From positions 1-33,227 of IMG/VR virus record IMGVR_UViG_3300030372_000108: a stretch of DNA of 33,227 bases, one strand, 5' to 3'. The notes under the pieces are model-generated. The model ran no database searches, had not been told where the DNA came from, and saw only the letters and a list, made by a program, of their open reading frames with translations. Shown in pieces: positions 2,081-32,414 of the stretch. A program made the translations under genes and the position numbers. The stretch's first letter is position 1. Every line of letters begins with the position of its first letter. This DNA comes from a virus. Lineage: Duplodnaviria > Caudoviricetes.

Positions 2081-2329
2081 TCAAGAAAATAATTTATCCT
2101 GGATATTCTTGCTTACATAACCATGCACAAAACGAGTTACATCTCTCATTCTTCTTTCACTATCTGTAAGCTCTGTATAGTACACCCAATAAGCCTCTAA
2201 AGTCATTCTTGCCATAGGTTCATTTACATTTGGCAATACATTCATAGCTAACAAAACATCTATATATTTTTCTTTTGTTTTGGATAGACGAGCTTGCTTT
2301 TTAAATATATGAAAATTATTTTTTGCCAT
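2081..2329 (-). CDS. Hypothetical protein
   Basis: Likely start MAKNN at 2329, a TAATG overlap with the upstream stop; ORF track extends to 2341. Confidence 0.7.
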   Translation of the reverse strand: MAKNNFHIFKKQARLSKTKEKYIDVLLAMNVLPNVNEPMARMTLEAYWVYYTELTDSERRMRDVTRFVHGYVSKNIQDKLFS

Positions 2330-3165
2330 TATCCTGTACACTCTCCACCATCAGCTTGACAGAAATAACCTTGTTGCTCAAACACCCAATCTTGTTGATT
2401 GAATACAAAGTCAGACAATGATGCTAAGTTTCTGTCTCTATTAAATTGTTTTCCAAATCTTTTTTCTGTGTTTAGCCACCATTCTGCACGTTCAGGATTC
2501 TCTTTCATCATCATAGCTAATTGAGATTCAGACTTTAAAAAACATAAATCACAGTTACCTTTTAAAGTTTTCCCACCAACAACAGGTAAATTTAGTTTGA
2601 ATGGTTGACTGCTCCAAAAGTTATTTACATCTACTAGTGTGTCATTAGCTTCATAGATAGGATAATAAGGATAGAATCCATCTCTATAATCTGTCTTGTA
2701 TCGCCTTGGTTCATCTGCTCTTATACCTAAAGCATGGTTCCATTTACTCCAACCTAAAGACTTTAAATATTTACCAGAAGTTTGTATCTTTAGAACACCT
2801 GTGCAGAACCTTTGCATAGCATTAGGTAGCCTACCATATTTATCAATTAACTTATCAAATGGTTCGCCATTACGACTAGCTGAGTTATGATTTACTTCTT
2901 TAAATGTATTCTTGCCATCAACCTCATCATATTCTAGCCATGTGATATTAACATTCCACCTATCAGAACACTCTTGAATAAAATCTAAAGTTTCATTCAT
3001 CTCTCTGCCTGTATTTGTAAAGATAATCTTAGCTCTGTTAGGCAATCCATTGTTAGCTTCAAGTATTTTGTAAAGCATATACCCACTAGTACGACCACCA
3101 CTAAAACTAATCTGCACATTTCCATTAGGTAATATGTAGTTATTCTTTGACATTGGCACACTCAT
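2329..3165 (-). CDS. PAPS-reductase-family (PP-loop) protein with Cys motifs
   Basis: SFSGGRTS PP-loop, NTGRE, RFCT..LK, GIRADEPRR, GNCDLCFLK, C-terminal CQADGGEC. Confidence 0.85.
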   Translation of the reverse strand: MSVPMSKNNYILPNGNVQISFSGGRTSGYMLYKILEANNGLPNRAKIIFTNTGREMNETLDFIQECSDRWNVNITWLEYDEVDGKNTFKEVNHNSASRNGEPFDKLIDKYGRLPNAMQRFCTGVLKIQTSGKYLKSLGWSKWNHALGIRADEPRRYKTDYRDGFYPYYPIYEANDTLVDVNNFWSSQPFKLNLPVVGGKTLKGNCDLCFLKSESQLAMMMKENPERAEWWLNTEKRFGKQFNRDRNLASLSDFVFNQQDWVFEQQGYFCQADGGECTG

Positions 3166-4247: not shown

Positions 4248-5432
4248 ATGAATGTATTAAGTTGTTTTGATGGTGCAAGTTGCGGCCAATTAGCCTTACA
4301 AAAACTTGGAATAATTTTTAATGGAAAAGAAAACAATTACTTCGCCTCAGAGATAGATAAGTATGCAATACAAGTTACACAAGCAAATTTTCCCAACACA
4401 TTTCAATTAGGAGATATAAGAGATTTAGATCCTTATGAAGTATCTTGTTGGGATATTGACTTAATGATGGGTGGCAGTCCTTGTCAGGGATTTTCATTTG
4501 CTGGTAAACAACTTAATTTTAACGATCCAAGATCTAAATTGTTTTTTGATTTTATAAAACTAAGAGATATTGTTAAGCCTAAATATGTTTTATTAGAAAA
4601 TGTTAGAATGAAAAAAGAGTCAGAGGATATTATATCTGATTACATGGGTTGCAATCCAATAAGAATAAACTCATCACTATTGTCAGCACAAAGTCGAAAC
4701 AGATTATATTGGTTTGTTAAGTTAGTTGACGATAAATATGTACCAGTTAATGTTTACCAACCACAAGACAAAAGTATATTTATAAAAGATATTCTTGAAG
4801 AACTACCTTTTGGAGATATACCTAACTATCTTTCTAATCATTGGGGTGGAGAGCCAAGAGGTAACAAGGTTAAATCAATAGACGATCCTAAAGCAAACTG
4901 CCTTACTGCATCTATGTATAAAGGACAGATTCCAACATACATAAAAAAAATTATTCCAAAACAAAATCCAACAGTATCAAAGGATGGCCTCATAAGAGTT
5001 GGAAGTGCTGATCTCAATGGTCACGATTACTTAAAAAGAGTTTACTCTAGGCATGGCAAGGCTCCGACTTTAACAGCAAATGGTGGTGGCAACTTAGAGC
5101 CAAAGGTAGGCATAGCCAGGATTGTTAACAGAAGATTAGATGAAAACGGCACAAGAAAAGATTATCAACTTGAGCTGCCATTTACAAAAGTAATTGAGGT
5201 TAGACAAGATGACAAATCAAACTGCCTTACAACCTTACAAAAAGATAATGTTGTTGTGAAAGAAGAAGTTTATGCTTGGCGAAAGCTAACTCCACTTGAG
5301 TGTGAACGTCTACAAACCATGCCTGATAACTACACTAATCATGTGTCTAATAGTCAGCGATACAAGATGATAGGCAATGGTTGGACAGTAGATGTTATTG
5401 CTCACATATTGAAAGGAATACAACATGGCTGA
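4248..5432 (+). CDS. DNA (cytosine-5)-methyltransferase
   Basis: Motif I FDGASCG, IV GSPCQGFS, VI ENV, VIII QSRNR, IX RKLTP.ECERLQ, X YKMIGNG. Confidence 0.95.
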   Translation: MNVLSCFDGASCGQLALQKLGIIFNGKENNYFASEIDKYAIQVTQANFPNTFQLGDIRDLDPYEVSCWDIDLMMGGSPCQGFSFAGKQLNFNDPRSKLFFDFIKLRDIVKPKYVLLENVRMKKESEDIISDYMGCNPIRINSSLLSAQSRNRLYWFVKLVDDKYVPVNVYQPQDKSIFIKDILEELPFGDIPNYLSNHWGGEPRGNKVKSIDDPKANCLTASMYKGQIPTYIKKIIPKQNPTVSKDGLIRVGSADLNGHDYLKRVYSRHGKAPTLTANGGGNLEPKVGIARIVNRRLDENGTRKDYQLELPFTKVIEVRQDDKSNCLTTLQKDNVVVKEEVYAWRKLTPLECERLQTMPDNYTNHVSNSQRYKMIGNGWTVDVIAHILKGIQHG

Positions 5433-21882: not shown

Positions 21883-22350
21883 TTATCCCATCAATGTTGC
21901 TGCTTTTGCACCAGATTCAAGTAAATTTGCATAAGCTCTGGTTTTGATTGCAGATGCTCTTGATGCACCTGTAGCTCGTATCATAGCAGCCTGTGCTGTT
22001 TTTGCTTGTTCTTGTATGCTACTTGCGTATCTAATAGCTATTGCATCTTCTTCTGTTTTCATAAATGTATCTTTTAATGCAAGCAAATTACTACCAGTGC
22101 CTACGACAACACCTGACTTTGCAGCAGATACCCTTTGTGCTGAAACTAGTTTATCAGAACCTTGTCTTAGCCTTTCTTGCTCATCTCTTGCAGAACGCTG
22201 TAACAAAACTCTTTCATTTTCAGCAATTTTAGCATTGTACTCAGCAGTCAATTTTGCTTGTTTCGCAGCAGCTTGATCTGCCTTAAAACCCAATATTGCA
22301 CCTAATCCTGTTGCTGCTGCTGCTGTGTTACTTCCACCACCTTGCCCCAT
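21883..22350 (-). CDS. Internal virion protein (T7 gp14-like)
   Basis: Ala/Gln-rich; Q....AKSGV...GS motif; follows the GNAT gene. Confidence 0.8.
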   Translation of the reverse strand: MGQGGGSNTAAAATGLGAILGFKADQAAAKQAKLTAEYNAKIAENERVLLQRSARDEQERLRQGSDKLVSAQRVSAAKSGVVVGTGSNLLALKDTFMKTEEDAIAIRYASSIQEQAKTAQAAMIRATGASRASAIKTRAYANLLESGAKAATLMG

Positions 22351-22775
22351 TACGTTACCCTCGCAAAACGATAATAGTCCGAACCATCAGGACCATACTT
22401 CTTCATTAAACCTTCATTCTCAAACCCTAACCACTCTACATATCTTATAGCTTGCTTATCATTAGTATGCACACTTGCTTGTATGCGTTGCAACTTTGCA
22501 TCTTCTTGAACATGGTCTAACAATATACTGGAGTATTTAGCTGCTGCAAAAGGTTTGTCATAGGCAATGCTTGACATAATAAACCATGCTTCGCCTACAT
22601 CTTTCCACAATCCATATACACCACCAATCATAAATACCTTACTTTCTAGCAATGCTGTGTATGCACTAATACAGCTTTCTTTCATCATAGCTGCTTTTGA
22701 GCTTTCTGGAAAATGAAAATTAGTTTCTATCATTTCTAAATCTTCTTTTTCAAAATTTTTTATCTTAAGCATCAA
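22350..22775 (-). CDS. GNAT-fold acyl/acetyltransferase (T7 gp13-like position)
   Basis: GEAW, RIQA.V, A.R...WLGF..EG.M..YG.DG.DY motifs. Confidence 0.85.
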   Translation of the reverse strand: MMLKIKNFEKEDLEMIETNFHFPESSKAAMMKESCISAYTALLESKVFMIGGVYGLWKDVGEAWFIMSSIAYDKPFAAAKYSSILLDHVQEDAKLQRIQASVHTNDKQAIRYVEWLGFENEGLMKKYGPDGSDYYRFARVT

Positions 22776-28284: not shown

Positions 28285-28497
28285 CTACTCCTCTTTCATC
28301 ATGTTATATATGTGTAGTATTACTGCCCTTTTACCTTCTTCAAAGGCTGTAGCATTGGCATCCCCAGCTACATAACTTGAAGCACGCCAGTTACAACGTA
28401 TCTCCAAATCCTCTAAAACCTTTTTACCAGCATTATCCCCAAAAGCATCCTTATACATTACCTTGAGCTGTGCTATTTGCTCACTCATTTGCACCAA
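28285..28497 (-). CDS. Bbp19-like small protein
   Basis: Y...F....GKKVL.DL...AF.EG.R.V.L.I; between portal and scaffold. Confidence 0.8.
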   Translation of the reverse strand: MVQMSEQIAQLKVMYKDAFGDNAGKKVLEDLEIRCNWRASSYVAGDANATAFEEGKRAVILHIYNMMKEE

Positions 28498-30076
28498 CCA
28501 TTCTTACTGCTTGTGCTGCCTGACCAACTGTAGCCACATCCTCTTGCTCCATTTGTCTTTCCATCTGCTCTTGCTGCATCATTGCACGCTGTTCTCTTTC
28601 TTCATCAACGGCTGATTGTGGCTTCAAGACTCTCTTTGGAACACCTAAAGCATCAGTTAGATAAGTAACCAATCCATCAGGATCAATGTGATCTCCAACT
28701 GGTAATGACTGTGACAATGGCATTAGTATTTCTAAAGCTCTCATTACACCATTAACAGAGCTAGACTTTTGTGCTCTTGCCAATGGCGATACATACTCAA
28801 TATCAATATCTAATCCTTGTAAAACCTCTGGTGGTACAGAAAGCATATCTGCACGCAACATCAAAGCAAACGCCCTATCAATCAAAGGTCTTAGCATTTC
28901 GTTCATTAATCTACCAAGCACAGGACCTATAACTCTCATTCTTTCTTCTTGTCTTTGTATAACTTCTGTTGCTGTCATATTAGGCGTACTGCCACTTAGT
29001 AATTGGTCAACGAAAAAAGCAGAACGAATTGCCATCCTTCGTTGTTCTTCCATGTTTAATCCAATAGGTATATTAGCACCAGTTTGTAGTGGTGTTATAG
29101 TATCTCTTGAACCTGATCTGTAAAAATTGAGACCTCCAGGCTGGGTTCTAATGGGGAGCAAGAACCCATCATCAGGCACTAATAGTGGAGGATCTATCAT
29201 TTTTTGTGCTGCTTGTATGATTGTTTTAGACATCAAGTTAATCATCTTTACATCTGGCAATGCAACCATAGCTGGAGATCTACCCATCACTTCTCCTGTT
29301 GCCTTTAAGAAGCGTGGTACAACGTAAGGTAGTTCCTGAAAACCACTCTCTGCCAATATCATTTTTGTTTCCATGCAAATATACATAGATGCAAATGGCA
29401 TATTCTTATTATCTCGTTTCGTTGGATCTCTTTCTTTTCTAGGCATAACAACATGAAGTATCTCTACATTCTCATCAGGTTTCTTCTCAAATGTTTTTCT
29501 TATAAATGGACCTACATTATCAACGCCAAATCTTTGCACAGCTTGTCTTGCAGGTAGTTCATACTTTCTAAACACAGTATCAACAATGCCATACTGATCT
29601 TCTGTTACATAAAACTCTGATATATGTCTTGTACTAAATCGTAATGTTTTGTCATCCATCTCAACAAACATACACCCAGTACCAAATACAACTAGGTCAA
29701 CATACATCTCATGGACTTCTGTTTCAAAGTTAGACATAGTAAAGGCACGCATCATTCTTTGCGAGGAATCTTCCAGCCATCTTTGTACGTCTTCATCTCT
29801 GCCTAGTTCTTCATCTTTCATTGTCAAATGAAACCATGGCGTTGCACCAGATGTCAGCATACCATGTAAACTAGACGATAATAAATCTACTGATTGTAAA
29901 GCTGTACCATCAAAGATAAGCTCCATTCTCTTTTCACCACGACTTCTTTTCTTAACTATGTCTGCCTTTCTTGGCAACATATAGTCAGCTAACTCTTGGT
30001 AATGATTATTCCAGTTATCTCTCTGACCTTCAACGTGTTGAAATCTAGCAACTATATCTTTGACATTCATCATCAT
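28481..30076 (-). CDS. Portal protein (T7 gp8-like head-tail connector)
   Basis: DL.VFGT, GE..GRSP...ALPD.K, DPPL, MTATEV..R.EE...LGP...RL..E.L.P motifs. Confidence 0.95.
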   Translation of the reverse strand: MMMNVKDIVARFQHVEGQRDNWNNHYQELADYMLPRKADIVKKRSRGEKRMELIFDGTALQSVDLLSSSLHGMLTSGATPWFHLTMKDEELGRDEDVQRWLEDSSQRMMRAFTMSNFETEVHEMYVDLVVFGTGCMFVEMDDKTLRFSTRHISEFYVTEDQYGIVDTVFRKYELPARQAVQRFGVDNVGPFIRKTFEKKPDENVEILHVVMPRKERDPTKRDNKNMPFASMYICMETKMILAESGFQELPYVVPRFLKATGEVMGRSPAMVALPDVKMINLMSKTIIQAAQKMIDPPLLVPDDGFLLPIRTQPGGLNFYRSGSRDTITPLQTGANIPIGLNMEEQRRMAIRSAFFVDQLLSGSTPNMTATEVIQRQEERMRVIGPVLGRLMNEMLRPLIDRAFALMLRADMLSVPPEVLQGLDIDIEYVSPLARAQKSSSVNGVMRALEILMPLSQSLPVGDHIDPDGLVTYLTDALGVPKRVLKPQSAVDEEREQRAMMQQEQMERQMEQEDVATVGQAAQAVRMVGANE

Positions 30077-30077
30077 C

Positions 30078-30299
30078 TTATCCTAACAAAGTTGGTGTGC
30101 CACCTGTGCCACTCATGCTTGTGGATGTTTCTCCTAGCTGACCAGCAACAATCGTACTGCCACGCCCTCTACGTTTCTTTCTCTCTTGTGCTTCAGCTTC
30201 ACCAGCTAATACGGCAGCTTTCTCATAATCAGCTTTATCAGGTTCTTCTGGAACTGGTGGTGGTGGTGGAACGTAAACTTTTGGTTTAAGAAATGACAT
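30078..30299 (-). CDS. Small virion/tail-assembly protein (gp7.3-like position)
   Basis: Pro-rich N-terminus, RRGRGSTI, C-terminal TLLG; directly upstream of portal. Confidence 0.75.
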   Translation of the reverse strand: MSFLKPKVYVPPPPPVPEEPDKADYEKAAVLAGEAEAQERKKRRGRGSTIVAGQLGETSTSMSGTGGTPTLLG

Positions 30300-30308
30300 T
30301 GCAATCTC

Positions 30309-30722
30309 CTATGTTATTGCTTTTTTGCTTTTTGGTCGTGTAACCACGCCATAGCCTTCCATAATTGTACCAGCTTGTCCTGACCTTTTACCTCTTGTGG
30401 CATATCTTGTTGTAATTGTTGGCTTTTCATCTTCAATAACTTCAGGTGTAACTTCTGGTGTTACCTCTGGTGTTACTGGTGCTCTATAATCCATTTTGTC
30501 TGTACCAGTTACAGTCTCTACAATTTCTTTAGTCAATTTCTTCACTGGTCTTTCCAAAGGCTCAACTATCTCAGCACCAACCTTTTCAACTACATTTATA
30601 GCTTTCTTTACTGGTCTTTCTAATGGTTCAACAACTTTTTTTTCTATATCTTTTGGTAAATCACCAACTTCTTTAACAATCTTTTTAGCAACTTTTTTTA
30701 TTTTCTTTGGAGCACCACCCAT
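30309..30722 (-). CDS. Lys-rich amphipathic repeat protein (probable virion protein)
   Basis: MGG start, VEPLERPVKK twice at 22-aa spacing, (TPEV)3, RGKRSGQAGTI. Confidence 0.75.
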   Translation of the reverse strand: MGGAPKKIKKVAKKIVKEVGDLPKDIEKKVVEPLERPVKKAINVVEKVGAEIVEPLERPVKKLTKEIVETVTGTDKMDYRAPVTPEVTPEVTPEVIEDEKPTITTRYATRGKRSGQAGTIMEGYGVVTRPKSKKAIT

Positions 30723-30723
30723 T

Positions 30724-31131
30724 TTACTTTCCTTTCACAATATGCCACCCTAACTTTTCAGTCTCAGGTCTAAACCAAAAGGCTTTCTTATAGCCACTAC
30801 GCATAAACATTTTCTTTAAAACAAGAAAACCTATTCTTGTATAACCTTTTTTTGCAATAAAGTCTACTAACCAAACATCACTGCCACCACCCTTATATCC
30901 ATTTACAGGAAAATGTTTTGTTTCCACATACTCATCTACCTGTTCATTTGTAGGGAAACCCCATGTAGCAAACATCAATGGCTCCTGATAATCATTCCTA
31001 ATAATCTTATACTGTCTAATTGATAAAGGTTTTTCAATATATTTTTGTACCATACCAACATCCCAATTTCTGTGATGCTCACTATACTGCACCATTTCTA
31101 AAGCATCTTCATAGTCTTGACCATACATCAT
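30724..31131 (-). CDS. RTX-toxin-activating lysine acyltransferase (HlyC/TAAT family)-like
   Basis: SEHHRNW, QY, P..FATW, G..VWLVDFIA..G match the HlyC motifs SPLHRNW, QY, PVAYCSW, GDRKWFIDWIAPFG. Confidence 0.85.
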   Translation of the reverse strand: MMYGQDYEDALEMVQYSEHHRNWDVGMVQKYIEKPLSIRQYKIIRNDYQEPLMFATWGFPTNEQVDEYVETKHFPVNGYKGGGSDVWLVDFIAKKGYTRIGFLVLKKMFMRSGYKKAFWFRPETEKLGWHIVKGK

Positions 31132-32414
31132 AGCGTAAAAGGATTGTACTCATTTACTGCCACAGATTGTGGTGGTCTAGTCATCACAGTACGATTCTCC
31201 AACCCAATAGCTAAATACCTAAACGCATCAGCACTATGACTTGTAAAGTCATGGCGTGGCTGATCTCTGAATATCTTCTTTCTTTCATCCCACTCCTGCC
31301 TATATTGTCTTAGCATCTCAAGACCTTCAGCACATTTATCCCTATCAAAGTAACATTTAGGTAACATCATCCTCGCAGCATTAATACCATCAGCAACTTT
31401 CATCTTCGGTATAACCCTAAAACGTATACCCAAACTAAATGCAGTCTCTAATCTCGATTTCCCACTACCCAGTTCTCGAACCTCAATATCATGTGGAGCA
31501 AGATGATCTCCCCAGTGATAATCTTTCTTTCGCAATACTTCAGCGTAATGGTCCAAGCCAACGCCACTATTCTCATAATAGTCAATAACATTAACAGCAC
31601 CCCCTCTATAAACCTGTGCAAACCAAATAGCCGTACTATCATTAATACCTAAATCCCAAGCCGTATGTACTGGCAACGCAGGATCGTATGGCACTCTCGT
31701 AATCTTTCCATTGTCATCTAAGTCAGCAAGCAACTTACCATAATACGCACCAATAATCGCAGCCGTAAATGAACACTCATACTCCTGCTCATACTGCTCT
31801 GGTGTCATTTGCAACTGTGCAGCTTCCAGCTCCGTATCTTTCACTAGCTTAGTCTCACTTGCCTTGGCAATCTTCCAGTACCATTGGTCAGACCCTTCCT
31901 CATCCTGCTCTCGTGCCTGTTGCAATATATCAAAAAAATGATTATGACCTGCTGGTGTACCTAAAAAGATCGCACTACCCTCTCTGTCGGATAGGGCTGG
32001 TCTTACAACCTCCCCCCATACCCTGGGATTTTGCATCCCATACTCGTCAAACACACACAAATCCAAGTATATACCTCTCAAAGCATCTGGATTCTCACCT
32101 GACAATAACATTATCCTGCCATTATTAGGAAAGTCTGCCCTTAACTCAGTCTCGTTAAATGTAACTCCTGGTATAACACCAGCATAATACTTTACATAAT
32201 CCCAACTAATCCTCTTAGCTTGCGTAAACGTAGGAGCCACCAAAGCAACTCTTGGTCTTGGTAAAGGACAAGTCAAAACGTGTTTAATCATATGATTGAC
32301 AGCAAACACAGTCTTACCAAATCGCCTGTGCATCACAAGCACATTCCATCTTTTCAAGTGTTTGTGCATCTCAGCCTGTAAGTCTCTAGGCTTATAGGGT
32401 ATCTTAACTTGCAT
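31128..32414 (-). CDS. terL: Terminase large subunit
   Basis: Walker A HRRFGKT, Walker B CVFDEY, GTP.G.N.F, nuclease WDLG..D and H.ADAFRY. Confidence 0.96.
   Translation of the reverse strand: MQVKIPYKPRDLQAEMHKHLKRWNVLVMHRRFGKTVFAVNHMIKHVLTCPLPRPRVALVAPTFTQAKRISWDYVKYYAGVIPGVTFNETELRADFPNNGRIMLLSGENPDALRGIYLDLCVFDEYGMQNPRVWGEVVRPALSDREGSAIFLGTPAGHNHFFDILQQAREQDEEGSDQWYWKIAKASETKLVKDTELEAAQLQMTPEQYEQEYECSFTAAIIGAYYGKLLADLDDNGKITRVPYDPALPVHTAWDLGINDSTAIWFAQVYRGGAVNVIDYYENSGVGLDHYAEVLRKKDYHWGDHLAPHDIEVRELGSGKSRLETAFSLGIRFRVIPKMKVADGINAARMMLPKCYFDRDKCAEGLEMLRQYRQEWDERKKIFRDQPRHDFTSHSADAFRYLAIGLENRTVMTRPPQSVAVNEYNPFTL

Follow-up and report, generated by a model that had tools for sequence, protein, structure and literature searches.

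Why does a tailed phage without RTX repeats or a T1SS carry a gene of the HlyC acyltransferase family, and what would the enzyme acylate? The question is raised by ORF135, a gene of a 33-kb, podovirus-like genome (IMG/VR record IMGVR_UViG_3300030372_000108, rated 100% complete), which we analyzed over its whole length of 33,227 nucleotides, hereafter the window. Our preferred answer, to which comparison of sequences leads us to assign a probability of about 0.45, is that ORF135 acylates the alpha-amine of Gly2 in the adjacent, T7 gp7.3-like protein ORF137 from host acyl-ACP.

Locus and genome context

The last 153 bases of the genome repeat its start, and its head genes are HTVC010P-like, terL being ~51% identical to that of HTVC010P. 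The sequencing runs that contain this DNA are marine or viral metagenomes; in RNA runs, only small shares of the ORF135-ORF137 locus are represented. On the minus strand, the genes follow each other in the order terS, terL, ORF135, ORF137, ORF73, and portal (Table 1). The terL stop and the ORF135 start overlap in an ATGA, and ORF137, with an AGGA ahead of it at 30730 to 30733, begins 1 base past the ORF135 stop. Lysine makes up 16% of ORF137 (22 of 137 residues), and its N-terminal half is amphipathic, with a hydrophobic moment of 0.56 to 0.66 (windows from residues 2 to 52), the median for ORF starts of the genome being 0.20. A preliminary description of this DNA had reported the 1-base spacing and a Lys-rich, amphipathic product, and the coordinates and composition agree with it.

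The same description had noted that the apparently complete genome contains neither RTX repeats nor a T1SS, and our searches bear this out. The RTX nonapeptide was absent from the 55 ATG ORFs of at least 70 aa, and none of the 30 ORFs scanned with Pfam, a subset of the total, matched an RTX or T1SS family; the genome thus lacks the nonapeptide repeats and the T1SS of an RTX toxin operon (rtxCABD). Elsewhere in the window, a gene with a PAPS-reductase domain (2329 to 3165) and a cytosine methyltransferase gene (4248 to 5432) possibly serve DNA modification.

Table 1. Features of the acyltransferase locus and of a second GNAT-fold locus (positions in the window)
Feature	Positions	Strand	Basis or remark
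Terminase large subunit (terL)	31128..32414	-	Upstream neighbor of ORF135; Pfam and PHROG
ORF135, HlyC/TAAT-family acyltransferase	30724..31131	-	PF02794, predicted fold, dN/dS
Ser17 codon, ORF135	31081..31083	-	Aligns with S of ApxC SPLH
His20 codon, ORF135	31072..31074	-	Equivalent of ApxC His24
Asp90 codon, ORF135, predicted catalytic base	30862..30864	-	Aligns with D of ApxC WFIDW
Arg121 codon, ORF135, conserved basic residue	30769..30771	-	Kept across viral homologs
ORF137, candidate substrate, T7 gp7.3-like	30309..30722	-	Homologs next to enzyme; feature match to PF11653 clusters
Gly2 codon, ORF137, proposed site of acylation once Met is removed	30717..30719	-	Met-Gly counts
GKR (residues 111 to 113 of ORF137), part of basic family motif	30384..30392	-	Aligned partner C-termini
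ORF73, phrog_831 small pre-portal protein, related basic motif	30078..30299	-	PHROG; weak profile match
Portal (head-tail connector)	28481..30076	-	Downstream neighbor; Pfam and PHROG
Second GNAT-fold gene, T7 gp13-like, phrog_308	22350..22775	-	phrog_308 E 2e-13; weak GNAT Pfam matches under cut-off
Internal virion protein, phrog_418, Met-Gly start	21883..22350	-	PHROG; directly 3' of the gp13-like GNAT gene

Family, predicted fold, and active site of ORF135

By sequence profile and predicted fold, ORF135 is a HlyC/TAAT-family protein. It matched the Pfam HlyC family (PF02794) with 37.5 bits (cut-off 25; E 2.6e-9); NCBIfam gave no match for ORF135 or ORF137. A PDB search with the single sequence found ApxC at an E value of 0.19, below a chance beta-lactamase match, so a profile search was needed, and a profile of 22 homologs retrieved ApxC only (E 4.8e-6). 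The best Foldseek match of a model predicted from 28 homologs (pLDDT 84.5) was again ApxC (PDB 4WHN; E 6.9e-8, TM 0.72), and VIA-align placed it at Z 14.8 (rmsd 2.2 A over 129 residues), the next match being at Z 10.7; N-terminal acetyltransferases were among the lower fold matches. In the profile alignment, S17, H20, and D90 fall on the SPLH and WFIDW motifs of ApxC, and no gap interrupts the alignment of the loop behind the catalytic strand. The HMM and structure searches that the preliminary description had proposed as a check therefore point to the TAAT variant of the GNAT fold, and the motif residues that it had named in the 135-aa ORF after terL are all in place. Matches in a viral fold library, to phage "host range protein" and "host specificity protein A," were weak.

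The Ser/His/Asp set was invariant in 22/22 clade homologs, down to 35% identity. In a wider viral sample, the Ser and His positions are mostly Phe/Tyr among the matches listed, and Tyr replaces His20 in 79 of the 101 homologs listed there. Of 128 library representatives, 114 have Asp at position 90; in the viral sample, D/E at this position and the Q, Y, W, and G columns were preset by the search pattern and are thus no evidence of conservation. The position of Arg121, not set by the pattern, is Arg in 99/101 viral homologs (among the matches listed) and in 110/128 representatives, and its putative role is ACP binding. The family has many members (419 representatives at E 0.001), and the ORF135 gene is under purifying selection (dN/dS of 0.12 to 0.31 in 12 pairs). 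From family membership, we infer that the acyl donor would be acyl-ACP.

ORF135 has in common with HlyC, CyaC, and ApxC the family, the fold, the Ser/His/Asp site, and a gene position directly before the presumed substrate. It differs from them in size, being a single domain of 135 aa compared with ~170 aa, and in setting, a viral morphogenesis operon. It may also differ in its acceptor: the known enzymes modify an internal Lys, whereas the comparative signal described below favors an N-terminal Gly.

Conservation of the gene pair in close relatives

We then looked into the conservation of the two genes in related phages, which had been suggested as a further check, and found the pair to be stable. 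A portal-anchored search located the enzyme gene between terL and portal in 57/57 loci spanning these genes, down to ~81% portal identity, and ORF137 homologs follow it in 46/48 loci, the remaining 2 being cut. The N-terminal part of the partner is highly variable in this clade and consists of Lys-rich repeats, of an unrelated Gly/Ser-rich domain, or sometimes of both in tandem; partners with Lys-rich repeats range from 94 to 234 aa. The C-terminal motif of the partner is conserved. While the N-terminal regions are freely swapped, Gly2 stays: 49 of the 52 distinct partner starts are Met-Gly, or 50 if one GTG start is counted. One class of clade partners has a flexible Gly/Ser start and no amphipathic helix, which counts against a lipid anchor at Gly2. 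In three loci (L007, L010, and L013) compared with 30724 to 32414 of the window, synonymous divergence was ~0.6 in the enzyme gene and ~0.17 in terL, which argues that the enzyme-partner cassette has been exchanged between close phages.

Starts of coupled downstream proteins in viral and bacterial loci

Outside this clade, HlyC-type genes occur in other marine phages, as the preliminary description had stated: six pelagiphage records (HTVC115P, 103P, 104P, 026P, 111P, and 112P) carry genes annotated as "toxin-activating lysine-acyltransferase" (bioRxiv 10.1101/2019.12.14.876532, available in part). These belong to the same Pfam family as ORF135 and likewise to marine phages; they differ in being ~22% identical to it, in having a Phe/Tyr-type active site, and in their partners.

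Each of two motif scans of viral contigs covered 120 loci, out of estimated totals of 370 and 150. Among these 240 fetched loci, 238 were HlyC-like (the other two, L180 and a locus from the second sample, are non-HlyC and were left out), and 228 could be scored, 10 having no callable downstream gene; the scans favor AT-rich marine phages, and many loci are near-duplicates. The coupled downstream gene starts with Met-Gly in 185/228 loci among the matches listed, and in 24 of the 28 enzyme clusters with data (60% identity, same matches) most members do so. For comparison, 1/120 of the other ORFs of the first sample start with Met-Gly. A bacterial scan listed 120 matches, of which 67 were HlyC-like and 53 were dropped as non-HlyC; here, 6/20 coupled downstream genes start with Met-Gly (among the matches listed), 5 of them from one Rhodobacteraceae group.

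At least four families are represented among the partners, and BLAST finds no link between them when the first 45 residues are left out. Among the matches listed, Gly2 is present in 60/62 ORF137-like proteins, 49/59 J-like tail proteins (phrog_31), 6/6 members of a family of 318 to 551 aa, and 3/3 proteins like HTVC115P gp45. Since PHROG scans of the last two families gave weak tape-measure-like matches or none, we call them ejection proteins by gene position. The enzyme tree contains two well-supported viral clades, both with the Met-Gly rule, and support for the link of these clades to the bacterial group is 0.36. As far as the sequences go, a Met-Gly start, not GKR, is the feature common to unrelated partners. 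In the genome studied here, only two ORFs of at least 70 aa start with Met-Gly, ORF137 and the phrog_418 protein, and each follows a GNAT-fold gene. The protein after the gp13-like GNAT of HTVC010P starts with Met-Ser, which counts against the Gly2 reading.

Of the 43 non-Gly cases among the matches listed, 23 are explained by ATGA overlaps, which cannot encode Gly2. Some of these partners have a leader ending in Gly, followed by a helix homologous to the Met-Gly form. Such leaders, with Gly where homologs begin, were seen in L120, L123, L127, L157, L170, and L647 (HTVC027P gp82), and their sequences suggest that the leader is removed before any modification. Seven pooled viral partners (among the matches listed) start with Met-Pro, against the Gly2 reading. 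The largest exception to the rule, HTVC103P, resolves: its enzyme gene lies in the replication region, yet gp58 keeps Met-Gly. This protein is homologous to the partner in HTVC115P (29% identity, E 2e-21), and its gene comes directly after the one that in HTVC115P lies before the enzyme.

Among the bacterial loci, L437, L471, L476, L495, and L524 have Rhodobacteraceae-type HlyC-like genes coupled to Met-Gly proteins of ~300 aa, which by eye combine a repeat domain with a Hint-like domain. In L465, a HlyC-like gene is followed 9 bases on by a gene for a 78-aa protein that looks ACP-like by eye.

These counts bear on the most serious alternative, which we nevertheless regard as unlikely, that the enzyme acylates an internal Lys of its partner, for instance in the Lys-rich N-terminal helix, Gly2 being a mere trait. 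Acylation of internal Lys is the canonical chemistry of the TAAT substrates described, and TAAT recognition sites are poorly conserved (PMC8510554, available in part); the clade enzymes have Ser, His, and Asp intact, ORF137 offers 22 Lys, and Met-Gly persists where HlyC is not found (see below). Set against this, 26 of the 60 distinct Met-Gly starts among the matches listed have no Lys in their first 20 residues, although long partners may have Lys elsewhere; the median hydrophobic moment of the starts is 0.51 versus 0.20; and Gly2 is constant in the clade while the N-terminal regions around it are swapped and total length varies.

Relatives without HlyC and contents of the tail-gene slot

We also anchored a scan on the J-like partner, which yielded 96 loci, 8 of them too short to judge. 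With HlyC (n = 70), the partner starts with Met-Gly in 43, Met-Ala in 17, and Met-Ser in 10; without it (n = 18), 12 start with Met-Gly-Phe-Phe and 6 with Met-Phe or Met-Trp. The enzyme can thus occur without Gly2, and Gly2 without the enzyme. All 7 distinct starts without HlyC have at least two aromatics in residues 2 to 6, compared with 0/25 starts with HlyC, a contrast that rests on two or three lineages. Partners without adjacent HlyC in L309 to L404 (tail-anchored) and in L649 have Phe/Trp-rich tips and belong to two unrelated families, and in another partner family, a member without the enzyme starts with Met-Gly-Phe-Phe; HTVC202P does not fit the pattern. From these starts, aromatic tips possibly replace the lipid anchor where HlyC is absent.

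Met-Gly is also kept without detected HlyC in the tail protein of HTVC202P, both pre-portal proteins of HTVC010P, and phage 023Pt_psg01, in addition to the 12/18 tail loci, and may therefore be a family trait. These absences are soft, because the whole-genome HlyC search missed 1/5 known positives; the five HlyC-less tail contigs searched are 24 to 61% complete, and this search and one further search for HlyC absence had no positive control. Pelagiphages with the L-like/J-like tail gene block have been described as podoviruses by morphology. The slot between these two tail genes (L304 to L308, L108, and L110) contains HlyC, a standard GNAT, DUF6950, or nothing.

Such variation would suit an enzyme with a different target, be it a lipid, a host protein, or some other protein of the virion, or one that chaperones amphipathic N-termini without catalysis, adjacency then reflecting co-expression only. 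DUF6950 can occupy the slot, the enzyme gene is dispensable in close relatives such as HTVC202P and sits in the replication region of HTVC103P-type phages, and most sequences of the wider viral sample (among the matches listed) have Phe/Tyr in place of Ser/His. We consider this second alternative improbable in view of the repeated tight coupling to unrelated Gly-start partners, the conservation of Arg121, and the full Ser/His/Asp set of the clade; moreover, CdiC and ApxC can in part do without the His (PMC8510554, available in part).

A third possibility is short-chain acylation of the N-terminus or of Lys from acetyl-CoA or another acyl-CoA, for protection or charge tuning in tail assembly and with no membrane anchor. 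It draws on the ordinary GNAT in the same slot of phage DSL-LC06, on the N-terminal acetyltransferases among the lower fold matches, and on gp7.3-like proteins being basic and binding DNA (PMC11784390, available in part). We give it little credence: the ORF135 model is clearly nearer ApxC (Z 14.8) than any CoA-using GNAT (Z of 10.7 at most), the gap-free loop after the catalytic strand fits ApxC as well, and the aromatic-rich starts without HlyC point to hydrophobicity.

ORF137, T7 gp7.3, and the GKR motif

ORF137 combines a Met-Gly start, Lys-rich amphipathic N-terminal repeats, a TPE linker, and a conserved basic C-terminal motif. It has no Pfam (PF11653 included) or PHROG match of its own. 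In Atlas language-model features, it resembles the PF11653 (T7 gp7.3) clusters at 0.91, with 164 shared, slightly fewer than the 170 that true members typically have; an HMM of its C-terminus matched T7 gp7.3 at E 0.38 in a test of 10 sequences. T7 gp7.3 has a Met-Gly start, a Lys-rich N-terminus, and a pre-portal position in common with ORF137. We thus predict from these likenesses a small tail or ejection protein of the gp7.3 type. The earlier suggestion that ORF137 is a virion or ejected protein is in keeping with the Atlas features, which recall small T7 virion proteins, and finds no backing in PF11653 or PHROG. T7 gp7.3 sits in the tail channel around DNA, with two Lys near its C-terminus contacting the DNA end, and is described as an assembly scaffold (PMC11784390, available in part), which counts against the Gly2 reading.

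The C-terminal motif of ORF137 weakly cross-matches both pre-portal proteins of HTVC010P (~9 bits) and ORF73 (7 bits; hhalign probability 21% over 16 columns); no HlyC was detected in HTVC010P, yet its pre-portal proteins share a similar basic motif weakly. The GKR of ORF137 lies where the preliminary description had placed it, and its proposed role as the acyl site does not stand. That K112 of this motif is acylated is highly improbable and was rejected: 39 of the 53 distinct C-termini of partners have GKR at the aligned position, and HlyA sites fall in Gly-Lys motifs (PMC8510554, available in part), but the Lys is Arg in 5/53 (in L002 beside an enzyme 93% identical to ORF135), the preceding Gly is absent in 9/53, GK[R/Y] occurs in only 11/60 Met-Gly partners (among the matches listed, many cut at contig ends), GKR is near chance in the genome (50 GK and 3 GKR motifs across 55 ORFs), and a similar motif exists without HlyC. 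With these substitutions, the weak cross-matches, and the gp7.3 Lys that hold the DNA end, GKR is a poor candidate site and, by analogy, more likely binds DNA or the tail.

Proposed mechanism and known systems

Methionine aminopeptidase removes Met before Gly2. We propose that the host enzyme would in this way expose Gly2 of ORF137, that Asp90 of ORF135 would activate the Gly2 amine, and that a fatty acyl chain would move from host acyl-ACP to this free N-terminal amine. The acylated basic amphipathic N-terminus would be packaged in the virion and, at infection, its lipid would help anchor the virion protein to the outer membrane or LPS, a role like that proposed for acylated CdiA (PMC8510554). 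The basic C-terminal motif would meanwhile bind DNA or the tail, as in T7 gp7.3.

Gly2 acylation is supported by the TAAT family and fold, the purifying selection, the 57/57 loci, Met-Gly across unrelated partners, the Lys-free starts, the position of both Met-Gly ORFs of the genome after GNAT-fold genes, the aromatic starts of enzyme-less relatives, and the CdiC precedent discussed below. It is weakened by the Lys specificity of the characterized TAATs, by Met-Gly in relatives without HlyC, and by the 27/70 HlyC-linked tail-anchored partners that start with Met-Ala or Met-Ser. When the Gly2 reading and its rivals are taken together, acylation of the partner at some site with some chain is probable.

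The closest precedent is CdiC of class IV contact-dependent inhibition, a TAAT that lipidates a non-RTX protein, for which a role of the lipid in anchoring LPS binding has been proposed; relatives without cdiC are known, and they have lost the acceptor (PMC8510554, available in part). A TAAT acting on a non-RTX protein and the existence of enzyme-less relatives are common to both systems. They differ in that CdiC acylates a bacterial secreted effector on Lys1467 (same source), whereas here a phage protein with a candidate acceptor is concerned.

In T7, gp6.7, gp7, and gp7.3 precede portal gp8 as small pre-portal proteins, and gp7.3 is Met-Gly and Lys-rich, as is ORF137 (PMC11784390, available in part). 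No Pfam or PHROG homology was detected between the two sets, and the available part of that paper does not mention acylation. The weak fold matches to phage "host range protein" and "host specificity protein A" hint that gp7, which precedes gp7.3, may be GNAT-like.

Among non-enveloped animal viruses, picornavirus VP4 and reovirus mu1 are penetration proteins N-myristoylated on Gly2 by NMT, a host double-GNAT enzyme that depends on acyl-CoA. Met removal, Gly2 acylation, and lipid-assisted membrane entry would, by analogy, be common to that process and the one proposed here. The enzymes differ: ORF135 does not have the double-GNAT architecture of NMT and would be a single-domain, virus-encoded TAAT, presumably dependent on ACP.

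Significance

The main text of the pelagiphage preprint, available without supplements, mentions HlyC once, as a figure abbreviation, and contains no substrate or gene-pair analysis (bioRxiv 10.1101/2019.12.14.876532). The literature covered, which included few subscription papers, held no report of the HlyC-partner pairing, the Met-Gly rule, or a substrate, of a fatty-acylated tailed-phage protein, or of a TAAT acylating an alpha-amine. What was known is the annotation of HlyC-type genes in pelagiphages; what is new is their pairing with Met-Gly partners as a broad pattern.

More tentatively than for ORF135 itself, we suggest that tailed phages, abundant pelagiphages included, may carry a gene for an N-terminal glycine fatty-acyltransferase of their own, a TAAT whose target has shifted from Lys to the alpha-amine. 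As a prokaryotic counterpart of viral N-myristoylation, this enzyme would lipidate the virion protein that is first to contact the envelope, whether gp7.3-like, an ejection protein, or a J-like tail-tip protein. Phe/Trp-rich tips would then be an enzyme-free substitute, and GNATs of the gp13 and gp7 types possible equivalents in T7-like phages. Predicted sites in cultured pelagiphages are HTVC115P gp45, HTVC103P gp58, and HTVC026P gp48, with HTVC202P, in which no HlyC was detected, as a natural control. If true, the proposal would mean that virion assembly includes an additional post-translational step, would assign a function to the acyltransferase slot that recurs in tail and ejection operons, and would make a small enzyme for N-terminal lipidation available. 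It would also account for the way in which short-tailed phages infecting abundant marine bacteria gain their first grip on the outer membrane.
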